The position numbers were made by a program, and so were the translations under genes. This document shows positions 18,920 to 42,594 of a stretch of DNA of 64,000 bases, piece after piece. The notes under the pieces were generated by a model. That model made no database searches and was not told the DNA's origin. It worked only from the letters and a program-made list of their open reading frames with translations. The stretch lies in the UHGV virus genome UHGV-2113617. One strand, given 5' to 3'. Position 1 is the stretch's first letter; each line of letters starts with the position of its first letter. The DNA comes from a virus.

Positions 18920-18949
18920 ATTATACCACATCCTTGTGGTAAAGTAAAC
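18920..18949 (-). promoter_or_regulatory. T4-type early promoter (GTTTACT-17-TATAAT)
   Basis: Minus strand GTTTACT ttaccacaaggatgtgg TATAAT; inverted repeat ACCACA/TGTGGT in the spacer. Confidence 0.6.
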
Positions 18950-19980
18950 TAGTTCAGTGCATTTAGTGCATTGTTCAGTTTAGAACGTTGCTTCGTGAGA
19001 TTTTTGACTTTTTCTTGAGCTTTTTCTAGCGTCTTTTCAGCTTCTAGCACTTCATTAGTTGCTTTAACGAGTTCATCATCTACTGCCTTGATAGACTTCT
19101 CAATCGCATCTGCATGCCATTTTTCAACAGGTTTAAGACTCGGATTTTCAATAGGAAGAAAATTCACTTTATTGAATTTCCATGCATCCTTATTACCTGA
19201 ACTATACATCCAAAATTTAGGATCGTTTGATGAGTAATTGGATAAATTTAAATTTAAGTTATCTTGCACTTCCTGCTTTTTCTCTTGTGTGACTTCGTCC
19301 TTTCTCAAAAAATCGTATTTAAATGAAACGATCATATCAAGTTCATATGTTGTTGTATGTTCCCAATTTCGCTCAAAATGAGGTAAAATCTTAGACTGAA
19401 CAGCGGCAACAACATCCATATACTTAAATGCTTCTGTCAACTGCGATTTAAGGCATTCACAAATTGAAAGAGAATTTTTTGTATTAGGTTTAAAGCTAAT
19501 TCGTGCAGTTCTATTATTTTCTTTTAATGGTCTTACTTCCATCTGAAGAGTATAACCATCAAATTTCAGATTCTTTAAGTTAATATCAGAACCTTTTAAT
19601 CGACTCGCAGTTGATAAAATTTGCTTTAATTGTCTACGGAACAGAGCAATAAATCTCCATTCAATACGATAATGATTTGGATTGAAAAATCCAGATGATA
19701 AATCGACCTTACTTTGACCAACGCCTTGAACAAATAGAGGATTTTTATAATCAATAGTTTTACAGAAATCGGTGAGCTGCTCACGAGCCGTCATTTGTGT
19801 AATATACCCTGCTTTACTAAAATTACGCACCCATTCACTACTGCTATTCTTATACTTAAAGTGATGAATAGCATGATTAACTTTATCAGGGTCTAAATTA
19901 TTTTCACACAAAAATGTCATAACATCACGAGTATAGCTGGCTCTACGAACTATATCTTCAATTTGAGAACGAGTTTTCAT
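18949..19980 (-). CDS. hypothetical protein, paralog family member B
   Basis: 343 aa; motif FRRQLKQILSTASRL; C-terminal coiled coil. Confidence 0.6.
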   Translation of the reverse strand: MKTRSQIEDIVRRASYTRDVMTFLCENNLDPDKVNHAIHHFKYKNSSSEWVRNFSKAGYITQMTAREQLTDFCKTIDYKNPLFVQGVGQSKVDLSSGFFNPNHYRIEWRFIALFRRQLKQILSTASRLKGSDINLKNLKFDGYTLQMEVRPLKENNRTARISFKPNTKNSLSICECLKSQLTEAFKYMDVVAAVQSKILPHFERNWEHTTTYELDMIVSFKYDFLRKDEVTQEKKQEVQDNLNLNLSNYSSNDPKFWMYSSGNKDAWKFNKVNFLPIENPSLKPVEKWHADAIEKSIKAVDDELVKATNEVLEAEKTLEKAQEKVKNLTKQRSKLNNALNALN

Positions 19981-19988
19981 GGTATTCC

Positions 19989-20879
19989 TTAAGATTTAAG
20001 TAAATCAACAATTTTAATTAACTTTTCACGCTCAGATTTAGCTTTACTACTCAATCCAGATAGTCTGAAAATTTCATCGTCATACTGTTGAATAGAAATA
20101 TTCAGCTCTTCAATCTGCTTATTAAAATAATCAATTTGTTCAGAATGTTTTTCGTTACTACGAACCAGTACAGGTTTTGTAGGCAATTTAGTTGAACTGG
20201 ATTCATCCGGGCGATAAATTAAAATACAACTTGAACCAATAGGGCATTTAGCACCAGATGAATATTCTAGTGTTCCAGCTTCTTTTAAAACTTCAAAAGC
20301 TAAACAGAGATGATGACCCATATTGACATAATCTGTAGAGCGAGCTCTGATGTAATAATCATCTCCACGAATACTAAATTTAAAGCATTTAAGGTCTTCT
20401 GTATTATTGGTCTTAAAAATCATTTGTTTATCTAGACCTTTAGCTAATCGAGCGCCCAATGCTAATAATCGTCGTTGATTTTCCCACAAATCCGCAATCA
20501 TTTGGTCAAATGATAATTTCGGCATTAATCGACCATAAAGGTCATATCCTTTATTATAATTACGAAGGATTTCACTCGCATTAATGCGAGACAACGCTCC
20601 AATTTTATTAAGGGCTTTCATAATGCGATTAGATAAACTCATTCCAGACCCATTTGTTCGCTGTAGATGTTTTTCTAATCCAAACCCAATATCAACTTTA
20701 AATTTATCTAAAATTTCGGCATGAACATCTCTGTCAATAACGTTCAAATTCAGAGTTGGGTTAAATCTATGAAAAAATTTATCTGGCTCTCCACGACGAA
20801 ATACAGTCCATTCATTCATCATTTTTTTATTAACTAAAGATTTAATTACTGTATTGACATTATTAATTACTACTGACAT
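19989..20879 (-). CDS. hypothetical protein, paralog family member C
   Basis: Start at ATG 20879 (GTGAGGAA SD); 296 aa; motif NQRRLLALGARLAKGL; C-terminal coiled coil. Confidence 0.55.
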   Translation of the reverse strand: MSVVINNVNTVIKSLVNKKMMNEWTVFRRGEPDKFFHRFNPTLNLNVIDRDVHAEILDKFKVDIGFGLEKHLQRTNGSGMSLSNRIMKALNKIGALSRINASEILRNYNKGYDLYGRLMPKLSFDQMIADLWENQRRLLALGARLAKGLDKQMIFKTNNTEDLKCFKFSIRGDDYYIRARSTDYVNMGHHLCLAFEVLKEAGTLEYSSGAKCPIGSSCILIYRPDESSSTKLPTKPVLVRSNEKHSEQIDYFNKQIEELNISIQQYDDEIFRLSGLSSKAKSEREKLIKIVDLLKS

Positions 20880-20886
20880 ATTTTCC

Positions 20887-21300
20887 TCACTCAATTTCAA
20901 TTTTAATTTTACTAAATACACAGAATATGATGGAAAAGACTATATAAGCACCACACACAGATTGAACTAATACCATTCCAAAGAACCAAACAATATTATC
21001 AAACAATGTCTGTTTTACGTCGAAAGGACGTAAACTTACAGTAATATTATCACCTTTTTCTATTGAAGAATACATCTCTGGGGAAATATATTCACTAAAT
21101 CTATAACCGTCTTCGAGTTCATATACGGCAATAAACGATAAACTAGACCCCTTTCCTTGAGTTCCTGTAAAGGTATTAACTACAGTAACATCATAATCTT
21201 TATAATGCATATAATCATTAATTGCGTAATAACCATATGCAACTACTATACATAAACAACATATCAATAAATTCAATCTTTTAATTATCAACCGTTTCAT
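20887..21300 (-). CDS. membrane protein (N- and C-terminal TM helices)
   Basis: 137 aa with hydrophobic segments at both ends. Confidence 0.55.
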   Translation of the reverse strand: MKRLIIKRLNLLICCLCIVVAYGYYAINDYMHYKDYDVTVVNTFTGTQGKGSSLSFIAVYELEDGYRFSEYISPEMYSSIEKGDNITVSLRPFDVKQTLFDNIVWFFGMVLVQSVCGAYIVFSIIFCVFSKIKIEIE

Positions 21301-21329
21301 AATAATCTCAATTAAAAGGGCTTAGAACC

Positions 21330-21340
21330 ATTATACCATC
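21330..21340 (-). promoter_or_regulatory. extended -10 promoter (TGGTATAAT)
   Basis: Minus strand tgGTATAAT inside palindrome TATACCAaggaTGGTATA, ~30 nt upstream of ORF 20887-21300; no clear -35. Confidence 0.4.
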
Positions 21341-21355
21341 CTTGGTATAAAGCGG

Positions 21356-21883
21356 TTATGCGAGTACCGTCTTTAACCGTTCTTCAAACTTCCGAAGAGT
21401 ATTTTGGCGTTCAGCTCTTTGCTTTTTGTAAGTTTCAATACGCTCTGAAATGAGAGAGTATCGTTCATTTACTGATTCTTTCATAAAATCAGGAATTTCA
21501 CGAGAAGCTTTAATCTCGTCAAATTTATCAATAACAGCTTGCTCTTCAGCAATTAAGTTATCATACATTAAAATATCTTTCTTGATGAACTCAATATCTT
21601 CTTGAGTTACACGAGACATTTTAGATGCTTTATCATTTTTGTACTGTTCGTTAGTATCACGAGACCAGTGTAATGTACGATTTTTATTCGTATTCTTGTA
21701 AATTTCTACAATACCGATCTCATCAATAATAACGATCCAATTCCAACGGGATTTGTAAATTTGTCCTCCATCAACAGTGATTTCACCTCCGATTGAGATG
21801 TCGTTAAAGAACTTGCTTTGCGCTTCAGATTTAAATTTGCCATCGTTGTAATTTACCAAGTTGAAAATATCTTTAGCGTTCAT
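21356..21883 (-). CDS. hypothetical protein
   Basis: 175 aa; GGAGGAA SD; C-terminal charged helical region. Confidence 0.6.
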   Translation of the reverse strand: MNAKDIFNLVNYNDGKFKSEAQSKFFNDISIGGEITVDGGQIYKSRWNWIVIIDEIGIVEIYKNTNKNRTLHWSRDTNEQYKNDKASKMSRVTQEDIEFIKKDILMYDNLIAEEQAVIDKFDEIKASREIPDFMKESVNERYSLISERIETYKKQRAERQNTLRKFEERLKTVLA

Positions 21884-21911
21884 TTTCTGTTCCTCCGTAG
21901 TTGATAGTTGT

Positions 21912-21941
21912 ATAGTACCACAGAGGAACAGTCTTGTAAAC
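21912..21941 (-). promoter_or_regulatory. T4-type early promoter (GTTTACA-17-TACTAT)
   Basis: Minus strand GTTTACA agactgttcctctgtgg TACTAT acaactatcaactac; member of a repeated promoter family. Confidence 0.55.
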
Positions 21942-21943
21942 CA

Positions 21944-22258
21944 CTAAAAGAAACTTCTTTCACAATTTTTTCCACTGAACCATGCGCTTACTGCTTTCTT
22001 AGTCTCAGGAGCAGTGTTATCCATAAACCATTCAAAGGCAGCCTTTTTATGATTCTGGAGGGCTTCTCGGGCTTTAATCTGCTCACGGTCTATTAACACT
22101 AACATATGAGCCTTTCTTGTCACCATGGGCTTCTTATGATTTTTTGAATACTCCCAGTCATTTGTCCATCGCATTGTCGTTGCGAACTGAAATACTGCTT
22201 CTTTAATTTTAGTTTCGTAAATTTCACGAGCCTTTGAGTATAACATCACTACCTCCAT
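21944..22258 (-). CDS. hypothetical protein
   Basis: 104 aa ORF. Confidence 0.5.
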   Translation of the reverse strand: MEVVMLYSKAREIYETKIKEAVFQFATTMRWTNDWEYSKNHKKPMVTRKAHMLVLIDREQIKAREALQNHKKAAFEWFMDNTAPETKKAVSAWFSGKNCERSFF

Positions 22259-22347
22259 TCACCAGTTTAATTCTAGTCATCTTTTTAATGGCAGTCCATA
22301 TAATCTATTTCTGAACTGCCTTTTTGTCATAGAAGTCCTCTTATGAA

Positions 22348-23316
22348 TTATTTCAGAAGAGTAACCTCAGCAATTTCTTCCCAACCGTTTTTGTCGGTCA
22401 TAATAAAGTCAGCAAGATAAAGAGCAGTACGCAGTGAAACATTGCGTAAACGATTAACATTAACTTTCATCCATGATAATGCTTTATAAGTTTCTTCATC
22501 AGAAAGACCGCGCTTTTGCATCATGTCAGTTGAAAGAATAACATCTTCAACCCTGACCATAATTTCTTCATTAGTGTGAACACCCAAATCTAAATAAACT
22601 GAGCGGGACACTAATGCTTGTAAATGTGGAGCAAGTTTAGTACCACGGTCTAATTCGCGGTCAATGTCAACGTTTGTGATAAAAACAATCGTTCCTTTAA
22701 ATTCAAACTCACGGTCAATGCCTTTTTCTTCTAAGTAAGAAGATGCAGTGCTCCAGCAGACTTTACGGGTCTCTCCAGTGTCCAGAGCAGCTTTTAGAAG
22801 ATTAAGAATGTCCATATCAGAGAAAACATCCACATCATCAATCAAAAGGACAGAATTCTCTTCACGATTATTCCAAAGCTGTTCATAAAGACCAATACCA
22901 GAGATTTTACCGTTAATGCTTTTATATTCAATGTATCCATTATCATTTGCTTTATTTAAAGCTTTATCTAAAGAATACGTTTTACCAATACCTGCTGCGC
23001 CAGAGATAATCAATGAACGAATATTTCCATTAATAATACCATTCGTCATCATTCCCATAACATTAAATCTTTTATTAATGCGGGTTTTCATATCTTCATA
23101 TGATTCTTTAACTTCTTCAACTTTTACACCATCATATGAAATATCTGATTTGTAAACCCAAACACCGCGACGTTTACCGTCAATTTCAACAAAAACTTTA
23201 CCATCTCCTTGTGCATCTACCGGAGCATTATCTGGGAACCATTCGCCTAAGAGCTCAAAAGTTCCAGAGATTTCTTTACCGAAGTAGATACCCTTATTGA
23301 TAGTTACAGTTTTCAT
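22348..23316 (-). CDS. P-loop NTPase (AAA-like ATPase)
   Basis: Start at ATG 23316 (GGAGAA SD), 322 aa; Walker A GAAGIGKTYS, Walker B VLLIDDVD. Confidence 0.65.
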   Translation of the reverse strand: MKTVTINKGIYFGKEISGTFELLGEWFPDNAPVDAQGDGKVFVEIDGKRRGVWVYKSDISYDGVKVEEVKESYEDMKTRINKRFNVMGMMTNGIINGNIRSLIISGAAGIGKTYSLDKALNKANDNGYIEYKSINGKISGIGLYEQLWNNREENSVLLIDDVDVFSDMDILNLLKAALDTGETRKVCWSTASSYLEEKGIDREFEFKGTIVFITNVDIDRELDRGTKLAPHLQALVSRSVYLDLGVHTNEEIMVRVEDVILSTDMMQKRGLSDEETYKALSWMKVNVNRLRNVSLRTALYLADFIMTDKNGWEEIAEVTLLK

Positions 23317-23352
23317 TTTATTCTCCAATTTCACATTTGTTTTGATAGGGTA

Positions 23353-23382
23353 ATAGTATCACACTACTACCCTACTGTAAAC
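23353..23382 (-). promoter_or_regulatory. T4-type early promoter (GTTTACA-17-TACTAT)
   Basis: Minus strand GTTTACA gtagggtagtagtgtga TACTAT taccctatc; inverted repeat GGGTAGT/TACCCTA around -10. Confidence 0.55.
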
Positions 23383-23385
23383 AAT

Positions 23386-23649
23386 TTATTTTAATGTTCG
23401 CCAAATTTTTACTGCTTCGCGACGAGATACTTCTACAGCTCCAAGTTCTACGGCTTTTTGGCGGTGGCGCGCGTGTAAGTCATAATGTTTAATGCGTTTA
23501 TCTTGAAACCAAGAGCGTTTCATTCCTATTGCTTCTGCCATTTCATGAAGCTCTTCAATATCTCCATCAGTGAACATATGACAATTTTTAGTTGGATGAC
23601 CGCGAAGTTTCCATCCATGATTCATTAAAACATCTACGTAAACTGTCAT
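23386..23649 (-). CDS. DUF4031-like protein
   Basis: 87 aa; MTVYVDVLMNHGWKLRG...HMFTDGDIEELHEMAEAIGMKRSWFQ resembles the DUF4031 family signature. Confidence 0.5.
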   Translation of the reverse strand: MTVYVDVLMNHGWKLRGHPTKNCHMFTDGDIEELHEMAEAIGMKRSWFQDKRIKHYDLHARHRQKAVELGAVEVSRREAVKIWRTLK

Positions 23650-23795
23650 TGATTCTGCTCCAAATATGTTTCTATAATTTTCTGAGCGAGATAAACTGCG
23701 TTATCTTCAGTTGCATCTTCTAAGAAATTTTCAAAACAAGCTGAAATCTCTTCTGTGTCAATCAACTTTTTTACTTCAATTAACGTAGTTTTCAT
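23646..23795 (-). CDS. hypothetical small protein
   Basis: Start at ATG 23795 (MKTTLIEVKK); the track's MVLYNYQL extension overlaps the promoter -10 and is rejected. Confidence 0.45.
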   Translation of the reverse strand: MKTTLIEVKKLIDTEEISACFENFLEDATEDNAVYLAQKIIETYLEQNQ

Positions 23796-23830
23796 TTTAT
23801 TCCCCCAAATCCACATCAGTTGATAGTTGT

Positions 23831-23860
23831 ATAGTACCATAAAGCTTTATGCTTGTAAAC
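23831..23860 (-). promoter_or_regulatory. T4-type early promoter (GTTTACA-17-TACTAT)
   Basis: Minus strand cacaaagttGTTTACA agcataaagctttatgg TACTAT. Confidence 0.55.
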
Positions 23861-23908
23861 AACTTTGTGACGTCATTTTAAACAAAAAGGGAGACCGAAG
23901 GCTCCCTA

Positions 23909-27000: not shown

Positions 27001-27028
27001 TCTCTTCTCCTTGGCAGTTGGCAAGATT

Positions 27029-27058
27029 ACTATACCATAACCTTGCCAACTTGTAAAC
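27029..27058 (-). promoter_or_regulatory. T4-type early promoter (GTTTACA-17-TATAGT)
   Basis: Minus strand GTTTACA agttggcaaggttatgg TATAGT aatcttgccaac; inverted repeat GTTGGCAAG/CTTGCCAAC brackets the -10. Confidence 0.55.
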
Positions 27059-27840: not shown

Positions 27841-27870
27841 ATAGTATCACAGCTCAAATGGAAAGTAAAC
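27841..27870 (-). promoter_or_regulatory. T4-type early promoter (GTTTACT-17-TACTAT)
   Basis: Minus strand GTTTACT ttccatttgagctgtga TACTAT acaactatcg. Confidence 0.55.
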
Positions 27871-27907
27871 CGGTAAAATGAAAAAAGTCTCCCGAAGGAG
27901 ACTAATG

Positions 27908-30661: not shown

Positions 30662-30999
30662 CTAGTACTCAATCCTCGATTATAAGAATCTACCAAACGG
30701 TCAACCATTGAATGACAAGCGGCTTTATCTTTCTCCTCCGCAACTGAACATTCTAAGGTATTCCACTTTTTAGCATATCGTTTTAATAAAGTATCATTTT
30801 TGTATCTGCTTGATTTATCTCTTTCTCCGTCTTTATATGCATATATTAATTTCTGCGCAAATTCAGCTTGACATGCTTTATTTTTCCCACAATAATCTGC
30901 GGCAGTACGGTTTACATACTCTCTAATTTCAGTGTATGATGTATTTGCTAACGCAGAAAATGAAATTAATCCTACACATAAAACCAAAATTTTAGTCAT
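30658..30999 (-). CDS. secreted small protein (signal peptide)
   Basis: 113 aa; N-terminal MTKILVLCVGLISFSALA-NT signal peptide with AxA cleavage site. Confidence 0.55.
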   Translation of the reverse strand: MTKILVLCVGLISFSALANTSYTEIREYVNRTAADYCGKNKACQAEFAQKLIYAYKDGERDKSSRYKNDTLLKRYAKKWNTLECSVAEEKDKAACHSMVDRLVDSYNRGLSTR

Positions 31000-31544: not shown

Positions 31545-32006
31545 TCATTGAGTTTTAATTACTGCTTTAGAAGCCTTTCCTGGTAAACGACGACTGTTGA
31601 TAATTGCCATCCTGCACTGAAGTGACGGGTCTTTGAACTTCTCGTTAGGTTTACAAACTGTAAATCCAAGCCAAAGATTTCCATCTGTGATTTCTAAACG
31701 CCCAGGACGATATTCAACCCCATCAATAAAATCCTCATTAATGTCAGGACGCGGAGGCATACTCAGGAATTCATTAACTTCTAAAACATGGTCTTTTATT
31801 TTGTGGAATAATTCAAAAACATATGTCTCATCAATCTCCCGTTGAATTGCACGATCAAGAAGATGCTGAGAATATTTTAGATGAAACGATGAGACCCCTG
31901 CTGCTTTTGATGCCTCACGAATCTCATTGTTAATTTGACGAAACTCCGACTCAAAGTGACGACGGAGCTTATTTCGACGGATAAAAACTTCTGTGTTGAT
32001 AGTCAT
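31545..32006 (-). CDS. regB: endoribonuclease RegB
   Basis: 153 aa; MTINTEVFIRRNKLRRHFESEFRQINNEIREASKAAG matches T4 RegB. Confidence 0.9.
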   Translation of the reverse strand: MTINTEVFIRRNKLRRHFESEFRQINNEIREASKAAGVSSFHLKYSQHLLDRAIQREIDETYVFELFHKIKDHVLEVNEFLSMPPRPDINEDFIDGVEYRPGRLEITDGNLWLGFTVCKPNEKFKDPSLQCRMAIINSRRLPGKASKAVIKTQ

Positions 32007-32033
32007 GTTATTCTCCTCTTAACTGATAGAAAA

Positions 32034-32063
32034 ATTATACCACAGTCAAGAGGAAAAGTAAAC
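32034..32063 (-). promoter_or_regulatory. T4-type early promoter for regB (GTTTACT-17-TATAAT)
   Basis: Minus strand GTTTACT tttcctcttgactgtgg TATAAT, then AAGAGGAG SD and the regB ATG. Confidence 0.6.
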
Positions 32064-32065
32064 AA

Positions 32066-33521: not shown

Positions 33522-34060
33522 CATTGCATTCCGATTACGAAAAACTGCGGACGAGTAATACCACCGATGCAACAATTACTATTGCAGCAGTGTTGTACAG
33601 TGTCAATATGGACGCTATAAATCTTATCCATATCAGGAGATTTAACAGGCTCATCGATTATATACAAAATCCGCGAAAGCGATAAACCTCTGAACTTGCT
33701 TCCTTTATTACCGATAAAACTACGGACAGAATCGGTAAATAAACGAAAACGTATACCATCATTAGAATAACGCGAAAATTCCTTTTTAATGTTATTTGCA
33801 GAAATTTTAGCGTAAGCTGAAGTATTAGAAAGAACAATAACTGTTCCACCGTCATACAACCAATTAGCGGCAAAATTAGTTACTGCAGTTGATTTACCGG
33901 ATTGACGTCCACCATCTAGTCGAAGTGTGCAATACTGCTTAAGTAAGTCTTCAAATGGCGGGATATATTCGTTTTTACAAATTTCTTCTACTCTAGCATC
34001 AGAATGGTGTGTAAAAGCATTCATCAGGGATAGATAAGGACCAGTTAAAAATGTTCTCAT
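33521..34060 (-). CDS. P-loop NTPase (T4 vs.8 position)
   Basis: Start at ATG 34060 (GAGAG SD); 179 aa; Walker A GGRQSGKST, Walker B ILYIIDEP. Confidence 0.55.
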   Translation of the reverse strand: MRTFLTGPYLSLMNAFTHHSDARVEEICKNEYIPPFEDLLKQYCTLRLDGGRQSGKSTAVTNFAANWLYDGGTVIVLSNTSAYAKISANNIKKEFSRYSNDGIRFRLFTDSVRSFIGNKGSKFRGLSLSRILYIIDEPVKSPDMDKIYSVHIDTVQHCCNSNCCIGGITRPQFFVIGMQ

Positions 34061-34108
34061 TTTATTCTCTCTAAATTTGGGCCATTCCATGGCGCATGAA
34101 TTGTCCAT

Positions 34109-34160
34109 TTCTGTATTTACCCATTACCGCACTTGGGCTCGACCTTATTACAGGTTGGCG
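34109..34160 (-). repeat. ~50-70 bp element, copy 1 (homologous to 34650-34740)
   Basis: Shares GCATGAATTGTCC(R)TTTCT(R)TATTTA(Y)C..ATTACCG with the ipIII-ipII intergenic region. Confidence 0.5.
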
Positions 34161-34225
34161 GGAATCCCTCACAGAATCATGAGGTCCAGCTTGTTCCCAT
34201 GTTATTTGAATGTAAATATTTTTGC

Positions 34226-34274
34226 CTTAATACTTATACCAGTGTGGCTTCGTTAAAATTTTTCATCGAGTCAT
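34226..34274 (-). pseudogene. denV: denV (endonuclease V) deletion remnant
   Basis: Promoter and GGAGAGG SD drive ATG ACT CGA TGA (M-T-R-stop; T4 DenV starts MTRINLT); downstream reads K-I-L-T-K-P-H-W-Y-K-Y-stop, resembling the DenV C-terminus KIAQRPTWYKYY. About 115 codons are missing. Confidence 0.6.
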
Positions 34275-34299
34275 TTTACCTCTCCAAGTAATTATGAAT

Positions 34300-34329
34300 A
34301 TACTATCACAATTTTAGGAGAAAGTAAAC
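34300..34329 (-). promoter_or_regulatory. T4-type early promoter upstream of denV remnant
   Basis: Minus strand GTTTACT ttctcctaaaattgtga TAGTAT; near-identical to the promoter at 35359-35388. Confidence 0.55.
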
Positions 34330-34331
34330 TG

Positions 34332-34634
34332 TTATTTACCTTTAATTACTTTAGCTGCTTCGATAGCCGCTTGCTGAAGGTCATCCATAGACATACCGAA
34401 TTTAGAAGCAAAGTTATCAATTTTCTTTTCGACAGCATTCAAAGGCTTGGCCTGTTTACCTTCATTAGCGCCAGGAAGAGCGAGAATACGTTCTTTGTCA
34501 ATATAAAGGCTTACAAGTTTCTTACGGTCTTTATCGGACAAATCATGAAATGAATGGGCCTTTTTATTTATAGCGGCTTCTAATTTACCTGCACTCACTC
34601 GCGCTTCAGTAATAAATTCTTGATATGTTTTCAT
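34332..34634 (-). CDS. ipII: internal head protein II
   Basis: 100 aa; N-terminal capsid-targeting sequence MKTYQEFITEA; adjacent to ipIII and e as in T4. Confidence 0.8.
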   Translation of the reverse strand: MKTYQEFITEARVSAGKLEAAINKKAHSFHDLSDKDRKKLVSLYIDKERILALPGANEGKQAKPLNAVEKKIDNFASKFGMSMDDLQQAAIEAAKVIKGK

Positions 34635-34649
34635 ATGTTTCCTTTAAAT

Positions 34650-34740
34650 GTAAATAGTTTTATTCTTTAAGTTTGGGACAATTCGCACGCATGAATTGTC
34701 CGTTTCTATATTTATCTATTACCGGGTTCGAACTCGGCTT
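34650..34740 (-). repeat. ~50-70 bp element, copy 2
   Basis: ipIII-ipII intergenic region homologous to 34080-34160; contains GATAAATATAG (late-promoter-like) on the minus strand. Confidence 0.5.
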
Positions 34741-34742
34741 TA

Positions 34743-35321
34743 TTAAGAATTACCACGGGCTGCATTAGCAACGGCGTAAGCGTACTGAACATTAGCGTCT
34801 TTAAACGTACCTTTAGAGGTATCTAGTTCTGCCTTAAAGCCGCCTTTAGTCATAACATCGGCAAATTCTTTGCGGAAAGCCATTGCATCAAGGCTTCTCC
34901 ATGACGATTTGTGCTTGGCGAATTCAAGACCAGCGTAGTTGACAGCCTTAGCTAATTTATTATCAATAACCCATTTACCAGCTTTAGGCACAAACACCGG
35001 GCCTTTCTGTTTAGAGAATAGTTTTAAATTCCAGCGACGAAGTTCACCATCAGCTTTAACAAAAGCTGCGTCCAAGTTACTAGCAACAACATCTTGAATA
35101 TGACCAAATTTAAGCCCATCAACTTCAATATTTAGATCGGTGCGCCAGCGAAGTCCTTCCCAAGCGAAAGCTTTAAAGTCGGAAGCTTTTGTAGCTAAGT
35201 ATCGTTCAATAGGAGCTGTTTTAGGGTCAAAGCCGTTTCCTCGGTAAGTCCACTCATCTTTATTAATGCCTTTGGCCTTTTCCACAGAAGCTTCAGCGAT
35301 AAATTCTTTATACGTTTTCAT
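34743..35321 (-). CDS. ipIII: internal head protein III
   Basis: 192 aa; N-terminal MKTYKEFIAEA capsid-targeting sequence; Lys/Ala-rich. Confidence 0.8.
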   Translation of the reverse strand: MKTYKEFIAEASVEKAKGINKDEWTYRGNGFDPKTAPIERYLATKASDFKAFAWEGLRWRTDLNIEVDGLKFGHIQDVVASNLDAAFVKADGELRRWNLKLFSKQKGPVFVPKAGKWVIDNKLAKAVNYAGLEFAKHKSSWRSLDAMAFRKEFADVMTKGGFKAELDTSKGTFKDANVQYAYAVANAARGNS

Positions 35322-35358
35322 GTGTTTCCTTTAAATATTTTAATTAGTAACTGTGAAT

Positions 35359-35388
35359 ATACTATCACAGTTCTAGGAGAAAGTAAAC
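35359..35388 (-). promoter_or_regulatory. T4-type early promoter upstream of ipIII
   Basis: Minus strand GTTTACT ttctcctagaactgtga TAGTAT. Confidence 0.55.
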
Positions 35389-35392
35389 AACT

Positions 35393-35923
<531 letters not shown>

Positions 35924-35935
<12 letters not shown>

Positions 35936-36379
35936 GTTCATTATTCGGTAAAGTGAAGGACCCATCACATATTGCCACTGAGTACGAGGAATAAGAGCAA
36001 AAGCATCCATCTCTGGAATCATAACGCCATCTTTATTTTCAAAATAAGACTCGCAATGGCAATTTCTAAACATCTCATGCTCTACTGGAATCGTATAATA
36101 AAATAACTGTAAGTCTTTATTACTAGAATATTTAAATACACCTAGGTCTTCTAGAAGGTCTGGATTATAATTGCTAAAGCCAGTCTCTTCTAAACATTCT
36201 CTTCGTGCTGCATCTAGTGCGCTTAAATCAGAATTTTCTACACGGCCCTTTGGAATATCCCAGCGATGGGCCATCATTCCAGGCTTACGAGAACCGGTAA
36301 CCCGACCCATGAATAAATCTTTATCTTCTGTCATAAAGATAATACCAGCTGATAATGTTTTCATTTTAATTTCCTGCAA
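35924..36379 (-). CDS. nudE: Nudix hydrolase NudE
   Basis: 151 aa; Nudix box GRVENSDLSALDAARRECLEETGF; T4 e.1 position. Confidence 0.85.
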
Positions 36380-37673: not shown

Positions 37674-37692
37674 TCCTATTTACTCCAGTAAT

Positions 37693-37708
37693 AGGGGCCG
37701 AAGCCCCT
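37693..37708 (-). promoter_or_regulatory. intercistronic stem-loop AGGGGC-UUCG-GCCCCU
   Basis: Fourth copy of the GGGCcgaaGCCC-type hairpin, between ORFs 37714-38307 and 37065-37673. Confidence 0.5.
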
Positions 37709-37713
37709 TATCA

Positions 37714-38307
37714 TTATTTCAGAGAATTAATGTATTCCTGAACATCGGCAGAGGTAGTTTCAACCCCGGAAATATTACCGTTAAAGGTTTCAACTCGAGC
37801 AAGAGTATCTTCAATATCAACCTTAGTTAGCGCTGCGATTTCAACTACATCATCAGCAGTACTAATTCCAAGGGCATTTGCCGCACGAGTTTCACGGATA
37901 TATTCCAATTTAACTGCAAGTTCTTGACGAGCATCATCTAACTCAACTACTTTCTTGGCGATTTCAATTCGCATTTCAGCATAACCATCAGCTTTAGTAG
38001 TCAACTGCTCAGCTGTTCGACGATATAGTAAACCGAGCTTAGCATGCATTGTTACATCTTGACCTTCGGAAAGAAGTTTGCGAATTTCACGCTCTTTTGA
38101 TTCGGCTTGTCGATTCTTTTCGATAACAAGTTCACGAATACGTTTTTCTTCATTAATAGATTTAACAGAAGCAGTTTTTAGGTCTTTAATTTTATCAAGA
38201 AGTTTTGCTGCTGCAGCAGTATACTGTTCTTCAACAGATAGATTTTTAGCCATAGCAGAACCAAGTTTAGTGCGAATAAACTCAACAATTTTCTTCAGTG
38301 TGTTCAT
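37714..38307 (-). CDS. coiled-coil protein
   Basis: 197 aa, highly helical and charged with heptad character. Confidence 0.6.
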
Positions 38308-38350
38308 AGTATTTCCTTAGGTTGATTAAAAATTAAAATCTGTGGAAGAA

Positions 38351-38881
38351 TTATATCATGCTATTTAAGAGATGTAAACTATTTTTAATTTTACAAATTC
38401 GTTCAGCTTCTTCAACAGCGGCGGCGATAATGCTTTTAGCTATAGGAGTACTAATACTAGTAGCTTTTACACTTAACACGATTTCTTTATCTTTACCAGG
38501 CCAACCCCACGATTTTTCACCGTGAGTGCCTTTAATTACAGCAGACACCTCAAGTGAGCATCCATTATCATATGTTTTTACATTGACAACCCAAGGTTCA
38601 CTTTTCTCAATCGGTTTCTCAATCGGTTTATCCCAGTAAATATTAAGAATACGTGGGACATCAAATTTGGCAGGACAAATCTTAACTGTAAGACCTTCGC
38701 TTTCTAGCCAATTAATAAGAGGGCGTTCATACAGGCGACGATGTGGGCTTGGGATTCGACAAGCCTTATGTCCGTTGCTTGCGGCTTCACTAAGCTGTTC
38801 TAATACCTGCTTTTGCATTATTGATAAGATACCATCAAAAGATTTTTCGGAAGTTTCATTCAGTTCGGTATAAAGAGACAT
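38351..38881 (-). CDS. hypothetical protein
   Basis: 176 aa ORF downstream of promoter 38907-38936. Confidence 0.6.
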   Translation of the reverse strand: MSLYTELNETSEKSFDGILSIMQKQVLEQLSEAASNGHKACRIPSPHRRLYERPLINWLESEGLTVKICPAKFDVPRILNIYWDKPIEKPIEKSEPWVVNVKTYDNGCSLEVSAVIKGTHGEKSWGWPGKDKEIVLSVKATSISTPIAKSIIAAAVEEAERICKIKNSLHLLNSMI

Positions 38882-38906
38882 AACAGTTTCCTCAAATTAT
38901 AGGCTC

Positions 38907-38936
38907 ATAATATCTCAATCATGAGCCTATGTAAAC
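38907..38936 (-). promoter_or_regulatory. T4-type early promoter (GTTTACA-17-TATTAT)
   Basis: Minus strand GTTTACA taggctcatgattgaga TATTAT gagcc; inverted repeat GGCTCAT/ATGAGCC around -10. Confidence 0.5.
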
Positions 38937-39200
38937 TTATTTCATATTATTAAAATATTCTTCTGCGATTTCGTCGTTATCATGGTAAACTTTAGAAGAC
39001 AGTTTAACATAACCTTCAGCAGTGAACATGTTAATCACAACCTTTACAGTATACCACTGACCATCTTCATTACCCATTACTGCGTAAGTTTCAAACATCG
39101 GATGATCAGGACCGATAACTTTAATATCATTCACTGTACGACCGAAATCTTCTGAAACGCATTTCATAAAGAAGTTGAACAGTTCGCCGTAATTATCCAT
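38937..39200 (-). CDS. hypothetical protein
   Basis: Start at ATG 39200 (GGAG SD), 87 aa; the track's MVLYNYQL extension is promoter sequence. Confidence 0.5.
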   Translation of the reverse strand: MDNYGELFNFFMKCVSEDFGRTVNDIKVIGPDHPMFETYAVMGNEDGQWYTVKVVINMFTAEGYVKLSSKVYHDNDEIAEEYFNNMK

Positions 39201-39252
39201 TTCATTCTCCAAGTTGTTTTTCTGTATCAGTAGTTGATAGTTGTATAGTACC

Positions 39253-39282
39253 ATGGAAGAACGGGGATGTAAACCGTTTTGT
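39253..39282 (-). promoter_or_regulatory. T4-type early promoter (GTTTACA-17-TACTAT)
   Basis: Minus strand cacaaaacgGTTTACA tccccgttcttccatgg TACTAT acaactatcaactac. Confidence 0.55.
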
Positions 39283-39411
39283 GAAAAAATTTTTAAAAAG
39301 TTTTAGGGAATTCTAGGGCAGGGATGGGCAATTAAAGGATAGGATAATATATTATAAAGGGTATAAACTAAATGATGCCTAGAGAGGTCCAGAAAGGCCT
39401 AGATATCAAAA

Positions 39412-39435
39412 AGCCCCAACCTTTCGGTCGAGGCT
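39412..39435 (-). promoter_or_regulatory. stem-loop, 3' flank of ORF 39443-39916 (GNRA loop on transcript)
   Basis: On the minus transcript AGCCUCGACC-GAAA-GGUUGGGGCU, a 10-bp stem with two G-U pairs; part of a 32-bp direct repeat also at 39966-39997. Confidence 0.55.
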
Positions 39436-39442
39436 AAGAATG

Positions 39443-39916
39443 TTATTTGATTTGTTTAGCAGACCAAATGCGGTCTTTGATGATTTTTTGGAGATCTTCA
39501 ACATACTCTAGGTCATGAGCATGTGGATTATCTTTGAAACTATAGGCACGGGCTAATTTTTGGCCTTCGGTTTTAATTACTAAAAGCTCTTTAAGGATAG
39601 CTTCATATTTAGCGATAATTCCTTTAACAATATTTTTTTCTTGTGCAGCTTTAGGATCTGCTTTAGGAGCAGGTTTACCGGAAGGTTTTTCGAAAGCCGC
39701 ACCAGTAGCAACCAGACTTTTCCAGGCGGTGGTAACATAGTTACCCACAAAGCCTTCAGCTCTCATATCGTCGTAGAACTTGTACCGGGATTCGTCAGAA
39801 GCATCTTTATAAGAATATTTACCAGCTTTAATAGCAGCAGTTGCTACAGCGCGAACATCTGAAGCGGATGCTTCATTTAACACCACTTCATTTAAAAATT
39901 GAGCATATGATTTCAT
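39443..39916 (-). CDS. putative packaged internal protein with capsid-targeting-like N-terminus
   Basis: 157 aa; N-terminus MKSYAQFLNEV resembles the IP targeting sequences (MKTYKEFIAEA) with an L-x-E site; own late promoter and GGAAA SD; Lys/Ala-rich. Confidence 0.6.
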   Translation of the reverse strand: MKSYAQFLNEVVLNEASASDVRAVATAAIKAGKYSYKDASDESRYKFYDDMRAEGFVGNYVTTAWKSLVATGAAFEKPSGKPAPKADPKAAQEKNIVKGIIAKYEAILKELLVIKTEGQKLARAYSFKDNPHAHDLEYVEDLQKIIKDRIWSAKQIK

Positions 39917-39955
39917 CTTATTTCCTGTTTTAATTCGTGATTTAATATACTACTA

Positions 39956-39963
39956 TATTTATA
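39956..39963 (-). promoter_or_regulatory. late promoter (TATAAATA) for ORF 39443-39916
   Basis: Exact TATAAATA on the minus strand 40 nt upstream of the ATG. Confidence 0.6.
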
Positions 39964-39969
39964 CCAAAA

Positions 39970-39993
39970 AGCCCCAACCTTTCGGTCGGGGCT
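39970..39993 (-). promoter_or_regulatory. stem-loop, 5' flank of ORF 39443-39916
   Basis: On the minus transcript AGCCCCGACC-GAAA-GGUUGGGGCU; second copy of the 32-bp repeat. Confidence 0.55.
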
Positions 39994-40044
39994 AAGCCTT
40001 GCGGCAACCTTGTCGGGGTTCCACCTGCTAAGGCAAGTGTTTGT

Positions 40045-40136
40045 ACGAAACGCCGGGATTTGAACCCGGTTATTGAGCAGTTGACGCTACTCAATATTTT
40101 TAAAAGGCCATATCTCGACCATATCCGAACGTTCCG
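40045..40136 (-). ncRNA. tRNA-like stable RNA
   Basis: Acceptor-stem pairing (CGGAACG/CGUUUCG) plus canonical T-arm CCGGG-UUCAAAU-CCCGG, but a non-tRNA body of ~60 nt. Confidence 0.4.
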
Positions 40137-40309
40137 TCAAAAACGCTACTCGGCTTACGGCAAAGATATTTCCTCGAATCGATAATTTGGTGCGCCGTTT
40201 CTGCTGTGATGTAAGAGGGCATCAACAAATCATAAAGATTTATTAACACAATTCCTTACCCAGGGAACATCAGTCCGACGACTTACCGGTAGCGACCCGG
40301 TTTCTCATT

Positions 40310-40386
40310 TGGTCGAGGCAGAAGGATTCTAACCTTCAACCAACGGATTAGAAATCCGTTGCTCTATACAATTGAGCTATGCCCCG
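40310..40386 (-). tRNA. tRNA-Arg (anticodon UCU), CCA encoded
   Basis: Manual fold: acceptor CGGGGCA/UGCCUCG with a G-U pair, D-arm GCUC..GAGC, anticodon loop UUUCUAA, T-arm GAAGG-UUAGAAU-CCUUC. Confidence 0.8.
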
Positions 40387-40389
40387 TAA

Positions 40390-41055
40390 TTAAAATTTCA
40401 TTTTTCGACCTTTAAACCATCCTTCTGGAATTGGGTCAGTTTTCTTAATACGTTTAGAAACTTTTTCATCTAATGAATGAATCCACATCATACCAAATTG
40501 AGAATTCTTTTCACCTTGTTGGTGTTTATTTCTGGCGTGAGATTCTTTCATTTTATTAATAGTTTCAGGAGTATGGGTCTTACCCAAGAAAGATTTAGTA
40601 TTTAAAAATTTCTCTCTATACTTAGGATTATCCCAAAGCTGTTTAAACCTTTCTGAACCCATTTTACGATATTTTTCTTTAAGGTCTGGGTCGTTCTCAA
40701 ATCTGGTTTTAAAAGCGGCAGCTCCTTTTAAGGAAGCTTCTTTCTTTTTATCCAAATATTCTTTAGTGTTTAAATGGTCCCAACCACCTTCACCACCTAA
40801 TTTCAAATTATAAACATCAGGGCGCTTTAAAAACTCTTCAGTCACAATATTCTTTTCTGACTCAAACATAGAGGTTTTATCGTCAAAGAACTCTAATATT
40901 TCTTTAGAAAAATTTTCTATACCATACTTGTCTTGGGCTCTTTTTAATAATTTACCAGAACCCATATATCCATCATCTAAATTTTCGGTAGAATGAGCGC
41001 CTATGTAGATTTTATTATTAATTTTATTTGTTATTTTATAAATGTAATGGAACAT
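40390..41055 (-). CDS. segB: GIY-YIG homing endonuclease SegB
   Basis: 221 aa; N-terminal HYIYKITNKINNKIYIGAHS (GIY...YIG); located between tRNA-Arg and the 7-tRNA subcluster as in T4. Confidence 0.85.
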   Translation of the reverse strand: MFHYIYKITNKINNKIYIGAHSTENLDDGYMGSGKLLKRAQDKYGIENFSKEILEFFDDKTSMFESEKNIVTEEFLKRPDVYNLKLGGEGGWDHLNTKEYLDKKKEASLKGAAAFKTRFENDPDLKEKYRKMGSERFKQLWDNPKYREKFLNTKSFLGKTHTPETINKMKESHARNKHQQGEKNSQFGMMWIHSLDEKVSKRIKKTDPIPEGWFKGRKMKF

Positions 41056-41096
41056 AAATATCTCCTATTTCTAAGAGTATTTATGTTCTCAAAATA

Positions 41097-41168
41097 TGGC
41101 CCTGGGTGGAATTGAACCACCATCTGGCGATTATGAGTCGCTTGCTTGAACCTTCCAGCTACAGGGCC
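41097..41168 (-). tRNA. tRNA-Ile (anticodon CAU; Met not excluded)
   Basis: Manual fold: acceptor GGCCCUG/CAGGGCC, anticodon loop CUCAUAA, T-arm GGUGG-UUCAAUU-CCACC; T4 has a CAU tRNA-Ile here. Confidence 0.75.
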
Positions 41169-41174
41169 TTGATA

Positions 41175-41247
41175 TGCTGATTGACGGAATCGAACCGCCG
41201 ACGTCCTCATTACAAGTGAGTTGCTCTACCTACTGAGCTAAATCAGC
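41175..41247 (-). tRNA. tRNA-Thr (anticodon UGU)
   Basis: Acceptor GCUGAUU/AAUCAGC, D-arm GCUCAGUAGGUAGAGC, anticodon loop CUUGUAA, T-loop UUCGAUU. Confidence 0.85.
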
Positions 41248-41254
41248 GAAATTA

Positions 41255-41341
41255 CGGAGGCGATAGGATTTGAACCTATGAGTCGCCGGAGCGACTGCCG
41301 GTTTTCAAGACCGGTGCATTAAACCACTCTGCCACGCCTCC
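41255..41341 (-). tRNA. tRNA-Ser (anticodon UGA)
   Basis: 87 nt with long variable arm; acceptor GGAGGCG/CGCCUCC; anticodon loop CUUGAAA. Confidence 0.85.
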
Positions 41342-41343
41342 AG

Positions 41344-41417
41344 TCTCCGCGGCAGGATTTGAACCTGCGACATTCTGCTCCCAAAGCAGACGCTCTACCA
41401 AACTGAGCTACACGGAG
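41344..41417 (-). tRNA. tRNA-Pro (anticodon UGG)
   Basis: Acceptor with one G-U pair; D-arm GCUCAGUUUGGUAGAGC; anticodon loop UUUGGGA; T-arm GCAGG-UUCAAAU-CCUGC. Confidence 0.85.
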
Positions 41418-41429
41418 TAAATTAAATTT

Positions 41430-41501
<72 letters not shown>

Positions 41502-41507
41502 AAACTT

Positions 41508-41594
41508 TGGTACGAGAAGTGGGACTCGAACCCACAAGGAAATCATTCCGCAGCATTTTAAGTGCTGTGCCTTTACCAATTTGACCATTCTCGC
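41508..41594 (-). tRNA. tRNA-Leu (anticodon UAA), CCA encoded
   Basis: 87 nt with long variable arm; anticodon loop CUUAAAA; T-arm GUGGG-UUCGAGU-CCCAC. Confidence 0.85.
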
Positions 41595-41595
41595 G

Positions 41596-41668
41596 CTGGG
41601 AATAAAGGACTTGAACCTTTGCATCTAGCAGTCAAAGTGCTATGCCTTACCAACTTGGCTAATTCCCA
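41596..41668 (-). tRNA. tRNA-Gln (anticodon UUG)
   Basis: Acceptor UGGGAAU/AUUCCCA; anticodon loop CUUUGAC; T-arm AAAGG-UUCAAGU-CCUUU. Confidence 0.85.
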
Positions 41669-41765
41669 ATTATTAACAAAGGCTCTCAAGCAAGAACCCT
41701 TGATGATAGAGGGTATTAATCAGTGCGATATGAGTTAATAATAACAAATAATTCTTAAAGCATAT

Positions 41766-42053
41766 TTACCATTTATGATAATACATATTTACGATGCATT
41801 CAAGACCCAAAGGATTCTTGAAAATATCATATTCAAGAGGACCTTTTTCTGTTTCAATAAAGAAATCAAAGTTAACTGTGTTAAATTTACGGTCTTCCTT
41901 TACTAATTTAACCTGAGAAGATGAACGGTCAATGTAAACCTTTTCGACTTCAAAACACGTTAAAATGCCATAATCATCAATCAAGGCTTTAGCTGCTTCT
42001 TGATCATATTTATATCCATTTTCAATGGACGATACTTTCGCATAAAGAATCAT
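41766..42053 (-). CDS. hypothetical protein
   Basis: 95 aa ORF between the ipI-locus gene and the tRNA cluster. Confidence 0.55.
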   Translation of the reverse strand: MILYAKVSSIENGYKYDQEAAKALIDDYGILTCFEVEKVYIDRSSSQVKLVKEDRKFNTVNFDFFIETEKGPLEYDIFKNPLGLECIVNMYYHKW

Positions 42054-42055
42054 TA

Positions 42056-42238
42056 TTAACCTTTAGAAATTTTATCCATAGCAATAGCGATTAAACCAAT
42101 TAAAAATGCTACTACAAGTGAAAAAACGTTTTCTGCTGTAGTTAATAATCCGCATATAAATCCAACAAACATTGAAAAACTAAAAGCAGAAGCAGAAATT
42201 GCAATAGCAACATTTCGAATTAATTCACAGCGTTTCAT
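42056..42238 (-). CDS. small membrane protein
   Basis: 60 aa, two hydrophobic helices; GAGGAG SD and promoter 42267-42296 upstream. Confidence 0.5.
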   Translation of the reverse strand: MKRCELIRNVAIAISASAFSFSMFVGFICGLLTTAENVFSLVVAFLIGLIAIAMDKISKG

Positions 42239-42266
42239 TTTATTCTCCTCAGTAGTTGATAGGGTA

Positions 42267-42296
42267 ATAGTATCACTACCCTATCTAAAAGTAAAC
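42267..42296 (-). promoter_or_regulatory. T4-type early promoter with embedded stem-loop
   Basis: Minus strand GTTTACT tttagatagggtagtga TACTAT taccctatc; inverted repeat GATAGGGTA/TACCCTATC brackets the -10. Confidence 0.55.
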
Positions 42297-42530
42297 TTAT
42301 TTTTTACGAAAAATTGATTTATTTTCTGCTGCCCATTTTTCAATAACTGCAGCAGGACCAGTAACAACAATTTTATCGCCGTAATCTTCTGCGGCGAGTT
42401 GACCGAAATTATCTAATGCATCACGAAGAACTCCATGAGGCATTTCACCCATTTTATCTTTCTTACCAGTGTAAATAAACTCAACTTTTACATCAGCCGC
42501 TTCATTGATAAATTCTTTGAAAGTTTTCAT
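42297..42530 (-). CDS. internal head protein, ipI-locus variant
   Basis: From ATG 42530 reads MKTFKEFINEA... (77 aa); at the T4 ipI position next to 57B; the track's 99-aa version includes promoter/UTR sequence. Confidence 0.6.
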   Translation of the reverse strand: MKTFKEFINEAADVKVEFIYTGKKDKMGEMPHGVLRDALDNFGQLAAEDYGDKIVVTGPAAVIEKWAAENKSIFRKK

Positions 42531-42564
42531 TTTGATTTCCATTTGGTTTTGTTTTGATAGGGTA

Positions 42565-42594
42565 ATAGTATCACAACTAAAACTCCATGTAAAC
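42565..42594 (-). promoter_or_regulatory. T4-type early promoter upstream of ipI-locus gene
   Basis: Minus strand cacaaagttGTTTACA tggagttttagttgtga TACTAT taccctatc. Confidence 0.55.

Follow-up and report, generated by a model that had tools for sequence, protein, structure and literature searches.

Early promoters of a T4-like phage and candidate RNA hairpins embedded around their -10 elements

The window analysed here, a 64,000-nucleotide stretch of the virus genome UHGV-2113617, carries a family of minus-strand promoters, most of them between positions 18920 and 42594, about half of which contain an inverted repeat that brackets or includes the -10 element. Tequatrovirus genomes (T4, vB_VIPECOOM01, PST and others) matched the region at 91-97% identity, identifying the window as that of a T4-like phage. 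No identical record was found for the 18.5-43 kb segment, for which the best matches gave 94-95% coverage at 94-97% identity. GC skew and the open reading frames (ORFs) marked the minus strand as the early-gene strand up to about 46 kb. When T4 proteins were compared with the window by tblastn, ipII, ipIII, e, regB, nrdC.4, nrdC.8, nrdC.10, trna.4, e.6, e.8, mobD.5 and pin were found at their expected places, and the T4 segment at 64.7-67.1 kb (nudE, e, ipIII, ipII, denV) was the counterpart of window positions 34000-36000. T4 DenV had no tblastn match in the window; the remnant of denV, at 34263-34274 on the minus strand, reads ATG ACT CGA TGA and comprises three codons.

When the strict pattern GTTTAC[AT]-N17-TA[CGT][AT]AT was searched on both strands of the whole window, with spacings of 12-23 tested, 16 matches were found on the minus strand and none on the plus strand, at a spacing of 17 only. 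The number expected by chance was 0.017, as estimated from 300 dinucleotide-preserving shuffles. Thirteen of the matches lay inside 18920-42594, where the first-pass annotation had claimed at least 13 promoters with a 17-bp spacer, and three lay outside it (15328, 11102 and 10657; promoters are named here by their highest-numbered position). All four of the -10 hexamers listed in that annotation were recovered in range: TACTAT seven times, TATAAT three times, TAGTAT twice and TATTAT once. A relaxed scan added a fourteenth in-range promoter that had been overlooked, at 27029-27058 (GTTTACA-N17-TATAGT). A generic TTGACA/TATAAT sigma-70 scan was not enriched (93 sites versus 82.6 expected), which indicates that the signal is carried by the T4-specific consensus.

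An extended -10 (TGn) was present in 13 of the 14 in-range promoters, the exception being 38936, which has GAGA, and was missing outside the range at 15328 and 10657. The 25 nucleotides (nt) upstream of the promoters were rich in A (0.43 versus 0.33 overall) and in AT (0.76 versus 0.65). The upstream extension cacaaagtt, which had been noticed in several promoters, was found at 42594 and 23860 and, outside the range, at 11102, with the variant cacaaaacg at 39274. Each promoter sits within the 60-90 bp that separate the stop codon of an early gene from the Shine-Dalgarno sequence (SD) of the following one, and in 15 of them the distance from the -10 to the ATG was 25-44 nt.

The T4 genome contained 32 strict matches, all on one strand. 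Twelve orthologous T4 sites within T4 44-76 kb carried the motif, those of ipI, trna.4, e.8, e.7, e.6, ipIII, regB, mobD.5, nrdC.10, nrdC.8, nrdC.4 and pin. Lists of the T4 early-promoter consensus were reportedly given by Liebig and Rueger in 1989 and by Wilkens and Rueger in 1996. Such lists are also attributed to Miller et al. 2003 in Hinton 2010, the published T4 early -35 is GTTTAC at -36 to -31 (PMC1524935), and the regB promoter is described in the literature as a typical early promoter. The promoters of the window share with those of T4 the GTTTAC(A/T) at -36 to -30, the 17-bp spacer, the TGn and TAnnAT, the A-rich upstream element, conserved positions beyond the sigma-70 elements, the early-gene strand and identical genomic sites. 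Nothing essential differs; the differences are point changes in individual promoters, a patch replacement at 38379 and at the denV promoter, and the presence or absence of 23382, the cassette promoter. Judged by their sequence, the motif sites are thus early promoters that depend on sigma-70 in a T4-like phage and orthologues of those of T4, which is already known biology.

The promoter sequence also accounts for a shared N-terminus, as had been proposed. MVLYNYQL is the translation of ATGGTACTATACAACTATCAACT, comprising the end of the spacer, the -10 and the conserved leader, at 39254 and 23840. These N-termini are an artefact of the ORF caller; the proteins in fact begin with MDNYGEL (e.8) and MKTTLIE.

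Sixty-five nt around each promoter were folded as RNA, giving 17 promoter windows, and were compared with 250 random minus-strand windows and with 62 promoter-less windows upstream of ORFs. A minimum free energy z-score of -3 or lower was obtained for 7 of the 17 promoters (42296, 38936, 34329, 32063, 27058, 23382 and 21941), compared with 2.8% of the random and 4.8% of the upstream-of-ORF controls. No embedded hairpin of the window was more stable than that at 27058 (z = -6.2). Inverted repeats at the -10 had been reported for many of the promoters. This description held clearly for 8 of the 14 in-range promoters, where a helix brackets or includes the -10: the seven just named and 35388. It did not extend to the other six. 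The -10 helix of 42594 was weak, 18949 and 23860 had a palindrome inside the spacer, and no embedded helix was found at 39274, 38379 or 27870. The stem offered as the example of the class, at 42267-42296, proved to be 9 bp long with the -10 in its loop. The promoters of ipIII and of the denV remnant, described as near-identical, differ at 4 of 43 positions. The coordinates of all 17 promoters and of their hairpins are collected in Table 1.

Table 1. Early promoters of the window with their embedded or adjacent hairpins (positions in the 64,000-nt window; the promoter itself in the third column)
Feature	Positions	Promoter	Strand	Remarks
IpI-family internal-protein promoter	42565-42594	42565-42594	-	ATG at 42530; cacaaagtt; embedded pairing weak
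trna.4 promoter and hairpin	42258-42296	42267-42296	-	arms 42285-42274 / 42269-42258; core GATAGGGTA/TACCCTATC
e.8 promoter	39245-39274	39245-39274	-	MVLYNYQL source; only weak long-range pairing of spacer GTTCTTCCA with SD
Promoter of 176-aa ORF and hairpin	38899-38936	38907-38936	-	ATAGGCTCAT/ATGAGCCTAT, arms 38930-38920 / 38909-38899, spacer and -10 enclosed; downstream gene differs from T4 e.7
e.6 promoter	38350-38379	38350-38379	-	no hairpin; differs in sequence from its T4 counterpart
ipIII promoter and hairpin	35349-35388	35359-35388	-	8-bp stem AACTGTGA/TCACAGTT, arms 35372-35365 / 35356-35349; -10 TAGTAT in loop
denV-remnant promoter	34272-34329	34300-34329	-	near-copy of ipIII promoter; inner stem AATTGTGA/TCATAATT with one G.U pair; outer stem, TTTACTT.TCTCC pairs with SD GGAGAGGTAAA
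regB promoter and hairpin	32006-32064	32034-32063	-	15-bp hairpin around promoter
mobD.5 promoter	27841-27903	27841-27870	-	no embedded hairpin; preceded by intrinsic-terminator-like hairpin AGTCTCCTTCGGGAGACT and T-run (27886-27903)
Fourteenth in-range promoter and hairpin	27016-27058	27029-27058	-	-10 TATAGT; 13-bp AGTTGGCAAGGTT/AATCTTGCCAACT, arms 27051-27039 / 27028-27016, brackets -10
Upstream promoter of 458-bp cassette	23831-23907	23831-23860	-	spacer palindrome CATAAAGCTTTATG; MVLYNYQL source; preceded by terminator-like hairpin 23888-23907
nrdC.10 promoter and hairpin	23337-23384	23353-23382	-	core TAGGGTA/TACCCTA; downstream boundary of 458-bp cassette
nrdC.8 promoter and hairpin	21878-21941	21912-21941	-	spacer CTGTTCCTCTGTGGT (21931-21917) pairs with SD-containing ACTACGGAGGAACAG (21901-21887)
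nrdC.4 promoter	18920-18949	18920-18949	-	small hairpin TACCACAAGGATGTGGTA (18924-18941) within spacer and extended -10
Motif upstream of pin	15299-15328	15299-15328	-	inside 49.1 coding sequence; without TGn or hairpin; conserved in T4
Motif outside range	11073-11102	11073-11102	-	cacaaagtt; intergenic
Motif outside range	10628-10657	10628-10657	-	inside ORF; without TGn; present in T4 too

The self-complementarity was then measured by a permutation that keeps the sequence shared by the whole family, in which the spacer half of each promoter was paired with its own downstream half and with the downstream halves of the other promoters. The mean duplex energy in the window was -11.8 kcal for own halves and -8.7 kcal for cross-pairs (p=0.0002). 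Similar values were obtained for T4 (-11.3 versus -8.2 kcal, p<2e-5), and the excess of own pairing was also present in the 18 T4 promoters that lie outside the homologous region (p=0.0003). An ungapped helix with at least seven Watson-Crick pairs was found in 56% of 146 unique, phylogenetically related promoter instances, collected from all retrieved loci, about 30 in number, and in 22% of cross-pairs.

The arms of these helices are arranged in a recurrent geometry. The spacer holds the 5' arm, which in some cases extends as far as the -35 or the -10, and the 3' arm lies right after the -10 or at the SD. The start site was placed by inference 7 nt past the -10; a literature search found no T4 start-site dataset. 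With the start site between the arms, RNA initiated at the promoter would be without the 5' arm, and only RNA read through from upstream could fold the hairpin.

This geometry reaches the ribosome-binding site (RBS) most strongly at regB, where the spacer TTTTCCTCTTGACTG (32057-32043) pairs with CAGTTAAGAGGAGAA (32025-32011) over 15 bp, including two G.U pairs. The 3' arm includes the SD, and the -10 and the inferred start site are in the loop. The predicted accessibility of the segment from SD to AUG was 0.50 on promoter-initiated RNA and 0.16 on read-through RNA. Pairing of spacer with SD was also present at nrdC.8 (21941) and at the denV-remnant promoter (34329). At the hairpins that enclose only the -10 (trna.4, the 38936 ORF, ipIII, 27058 and nrdC.10), the SD was predicted to stay open. 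As RBS occlusion was strong at regB only and modest elsewhere in the window, it was dropped as a general role and restated as a claim about a subset.

Because IMG/VR gave only 11 regB loci, relatives were taken from a phage collection. Among the regB upstream regions of 13 genera, 11 had the promoter covered by a hairpin, with z-scores from -2.4 to -6.0; in this sample no such hairpin was found in Aeromonas phage Aes508 or in the RB49-like phage. The stem sequence was different in every genus. Most of the hairpins pair the SD with sequence that precedes the inferred start, and in Gaprivervirus and Muldoonvirus it is the AUG that pairs with the pre-start sequence. Accessibility was predicted for 10 of these genera, and in 8 of them it fell by 0.2 or more. 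Genome-wide in T4, 12 of the 32 early-promoter initiation regions lost at least 0.2 accessibility on read-through RNA, compared with 11% of 135 control genes (p=0.005).

Stem pairing was retained as the sequences of the stems changed between phages. At the ipIII/denV promoter, one stem pair was C:G, U.G or U:A across phages and another was G:C or G.U, and 100% of alignment cells in this orthologue family were paired. In the trna.4/ipI family, two pairs were doubly changed with G.U intermediates, and 95% of cells were paired. The 27058 family, taken together with a T4 paralogue, had two doubly changed pairs and four of the G.U type, with 100% of cells paired. In the three families together, all 11 variable stem pairs stayed paired, five of them by double change and the rest via G.U; the inverted repeats are conserved between related genomes. 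In each orthologue family taken alone, this sequence covariation is only suggestive. A comparison of the 27058 stem in T4 and other phages also showed A:U, G.U and G:C differences.

Mismatches within the helices pointed to the strand on which the pairing acts. Internal transition mismatches in self-helices were G.U in 50 cases and A.C in 17 (32 versus 14 when unique arm pairs were counted), whereas the same count in cross-pairs gave 351 G.U and 322 A.C. The sense-strand duplex was also more stable than the antisense one. This asymmetry in the sequences speaks for a sense-strand RNA hairpin and not for a cruciform in DNA or a protein operator. A protein operator common to the promoters was dismissed as a candidate, as arm sequences and spacings vary between promoters and complementarity alone is kept.

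The promoters had also been likened to the promoter-stem-loop cassettes proposed to mediate modular shuffling in T4-type phages, and this comparison was borne out. Promoter-early stem-loop (PeSL) cassettes have been described by Arbiol et al. 2010 (PMC2839356) and Comeau et al. 2014 (PMC4122927), the latter giving TTTACW-N17-TAYWAT as the T4/PST PeSL consensus. Fourteen of the 16 strict promoters of the window matched this consensus, and the two with TAGTAT were off at one position. In phi1 and RB49 the stem-loops most often fall in the interval from the -35 to the -10 or overlap the -10 (Arbiol 2010, PMC2839356). According to the account of Repoila 1994 given in the same paper, analogues based on T4 early promoters, with AT-rich stems, occur at two T-even internal-protein (IP) loci. 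As in PeSLs, the elements of the window combine an early promoter, a stem-loop and an SD and ATG in intergenic spacers of hyperplastic regions, and small ORFs are inserted, deleted or replaced at them, both IP loci included. In the published figure for T4/PST, the stem-loops stand immediately upstream of the promoter. Within 18920-42594, by contrast, upstream hairpins of the terminator type were present at 27870 and 23860 only, and most stems enclose the -10 and are without G/C runs or U-tracts.

When window positions 17-44.5 kb were aligned to 10 Tequatrovirus loci, 13 of 39 breakpoint clusters fell within -70 to +20 of a promoter, compared with 6% expected under a uniform null (p=3e-7). Three modules were bounded by two promoters (23328-23787, 38355-38889 and 42278-42505). 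The first is a 458-bp minus-strand cassette with two ORFs of 64 and 87 amino acids (aa), lying between promoters 23860 and 23382. It was found in vB_EcoM_F1 and was not found in T4, PST, vB_VIPECOOM01 or two IMG/VR contigs. The flanks of the cassette share a 21-bp overlap, located in the common SD-ATG segment. The module between 38936 and 38379 was missing by deletion from two phages, and others carried a replacement for it, e.7 in the case of T4. An IpI-family gene between 42594 and 42296 was replaced among relatives, and the IP/denV region between 35388 and 34329 was rearranged among them. Within the promoters themselves, the spacers and the -10/leader patches were mosaic between phages. A near-identical cassette of promoter, anti-SD and SD (ATCTCCTGTAG...CTACAGGAGA) was present at T4 denV and at regB of Dhakavirus IME08, which indicates that whole self-complementary cassettes move between unrelated genes.

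Collectively, these data make it likely that the elements are early promoters and cassettes of the PeSL type, about half of which carry a promoter-conditional RNA hairpin limited to read-through RNA. The promoter, leader, SD and start codon would form a conserved cassette at which T4-like genomes swap, gain and lose small genes. In about half of the promoters, the otherwise unconstrained spacer would encode the 5' arm of a hairpin whose 3' arm follows the -10 closely, within the first bases transcribed, or is located farther downstream at the SD. RNA made from a gene's own promoter could not fold this hairpin; read-through RNA from an upstream promoter, where such RNA exists, could. At regB, and less strongly at nrdC.8, at the denV-remnant promoter and at about one-third of T4 early promoters, the hairpin would bury the RBS. 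The read-through RNA would then be poorly translated and its GGAG shielded from RegB, and expression of the hairpin-bearing gene would depend mainly on its own early promoter. For the hairpins that enclose only the -10, the effect on read-through RNA could be attenuation, pausing or 3'-end protection.

A further reading is put forward more tentatively. The 17-bp spacer, which is unread by sigma-70, might double as one arm of a promoter-conditional hairpin switch, with the leader or SD of the gene itself as the other arm; read-through RNA would be silenced and kept from RegB, and the gene's early promoter would be the sole source of its expression. In that case the regB hairpin, kept in 11 of the 13 Tevenvirinae genera sampled with complete turnover of the stem, would add a third layer of control on a toxic RNase.

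An RBS-sequestering hairpin with an internal promoter is said to have been described in T4 by McPheeters et al. in 1986. The genes e, soc, 49 and I-TevI of T4 each have such a hairpin with an internal late promoter (reviewed in PMC3014915). Their arms are placed like those of the SD-burying hairpins of the window, with the 5' arm before the start site of the promoter and the 3' arm on the SD or AUG, and their logic is that upstream-initiated RNA is untranslatable and promoter-initiated RNA is open. The promoters of that group, however, are late (gp55, TATAAATA) and delay expression to late times, whereas the internal promoters of the window are early sigma-70 promoters that would confine expression to the early burst. 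By analogy, the SD-burying hairpins of the window are of the same mechanism class and form a different family.

The early promoters of T4 and the idea of PeSL cassettes at the IP loci are already published. The function published for PeSLs is that of a terminator or a recombination site, to which the present analysis adds the sense-strand covariation and the SD pairing. What is possibly new is that the embedded hairpins would be conserved sense-strand RNA structures limited to read-through transcripts, which is a lead and not a discovery. A conditional early-promoter hairpin was not found in two T4 reviews, the literature that this comparison covered.

Several observations weigh against such a role for the hairpins. 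Six of the 14 in-range promoters are without a convincing bracketing hairpin, and the predicted loss of SD accessibility in the window is large at regB only, modest elsewhere, and small or absent where a hairpin just brackets the -10. The covariation alignments are small, and shuffles reached the observed value in 28/500, 31/500 and 5/500 cases. As cassettes move whole between genes, some of the apparent covariation across genera is, on the sequences, cassette replacement and not stepwise compensation. The relatedness of the instances behind the 56% figure and the G.U count makes their p-values optimistic, and the enrichment of breakpoints at promoters is weak under a null that admits any gene junction (p=0.04). 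Finally, the stem-loop of RB49 PeSL211/210 behaved in an experiment like a strong terminator, lowering lacZ expression to about the extent achieved by rrnB T1 (Arbiol 2010, PMC2839356).

This last result speaks for the role proposed, and in part tested, for PeSLs, in which the embedded stem-loops would be terminators or attenuators that insulate cassettes from upstream transcription. The position of the published stem-loops between or over the promoter elements agrees with it, as do the hairpins lying directly 3' of upstream stop codons and the textbook terminators, GC-rich hairpins of the UUCG type with a T-run, that stand immediately upstream of two in-range promoters (27886-27903 before 27870 and 23888-23907 before 23860). 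In a terminator-like scan, T-rich tails were called at these two upstream hairpins and otherwise at the 18949 spacer hairpin only; the other embedded hairpins are followed by A-rich tails (AACUACUGAGG, AAAACAAAUG, UAACAUG) with no U-tract. Embedded hairpins were not significantly scarcer in promoters that have an upstream terminator, where a weaker energy was a trend only (-10.5 versus -12.8 kcal, p=0.31), and termination needs no SD-pairing geometry. The published terminator role is thus not supported by the sequence of the embedded hairpins, most of which are without a U-tract, and we regard it as unlikely here, with a substantial chance nonetheless of being right.

It is also rather unlikely that the hairpins serve to shield the 3' ends of upstream cistrons from 3' exonucleases after cuts by RegB or RNase E at the downstream GGAG/SD, or act as a pause or processing signal. 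They are well placed for such protection, with the stop codon 5-35 nt upstream of them and a GGAG-type SD 5-20 nt downstream. RegB cleaves at GGAG between early genes and is blocked by secondary structure (PMC3014915), and the structure behaves as sense-strand RNA. This explanation nevertheless leaves unaccounted for the frequent inclusion of the SD in the 3' arm, as at regB in most of the 13 genera sampled.

An action of the inverted repeats as DNA, in which a hairpin, cruciform or recombination hot spot drives cassette exchange with no role for RNA, appears improbable. Breakpoints do cluster at the elements, cassettes are bounded by two promoters, and the crossover of an RB49 mini-circle was located inside a PeSL stem-loop, in its loop (Arbiol 2010, PMC2839356). 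Stems of 7-15 bp with loops of 8-17 nt in AT-rich DNA would, however, make poor cruciforms, the excess of G.U over A.C (50:17 against 351:322) points to one strand being read as RNA, and the one resolvable junction, that of the 458-bp cassette, lies in the common SD-ATG segment and not in a stem. The idea that complementarity is a by-product of the family-wide promoter consensus or of chance, which draws on a weak 5-bp repeat in that consensus, TGATA(-10)...CTATCA(leader), beyond which 39274, 38379 and 27870 show nothing, is largely refuted and very improbable, given that own pairing exceeds the family-preserving permutation in both the window and T4 and is kept while stem sequences differ between promoters and genera.

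The main value of the promoter map is correct annotation. It explains the false MVLYNYQL starts, marks the true 5' boundaries of 14-17 early transcription units, and displays gene gain and loss relative to T4 in the 458-bp cassette, the e.7 replacement, the IP genes and the loss of denV. If read-through RNA is indeed silent at regB and at about one-third of early genes, as the promoter-conditional hairpins would imply, the distinction between immediate-early and delayed-early expression would become post-transcriptional in part. The spacers of the promoters would then be constrained both as DNA and as RNA, which would matter for the engineering of therapeutic T4-like phages and for the interpretation of their transcriptomes.

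Several minor observations concern individual sites. A search of the whole window against Rfam at the gathering threshold returned eight tRNAs only, and no curated model matched the promoters or hairpins. The eight tRNA genes lie at 40313-41668 on the minus strand, with an ORF of the GIY-YIG type (segB-like) at 41055-40390 among them; both the tRNA content and the region itself vary between relatives, and several breakpoints are located there. At 38351-38881 on the minus strand, an ORF of 176 aa, flanked by two early promoters, takes the place that e.7 has in T4. The gene after denV, vs.8 (33524-34172, minus strand), had its N-terminus matched in two frames, suggesting a frameshift or an indel. 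In two other loci (L002 and L007), the -10 and first leader bases of the nrdC.8 promoter were TATTATTACCC, compared with TACTATACAAC in the window, between identical flanks; from the sequence, this difference resembles a short patch of conversion by another member of the promoter family. The sole near-match on the plus strand, GTTTACA-N18-TATGAT at 30910-30940, is without TGn, lies within a minus-strand gene and is probably due to chance. The relaxed scan also recovered GTTTAAT-N17-TATAAT with a TGn at 44054-44083 on the minus strand, 5' of gene 1 (dNMP kinase), and this site is likely a weaker member of the same promoter family.

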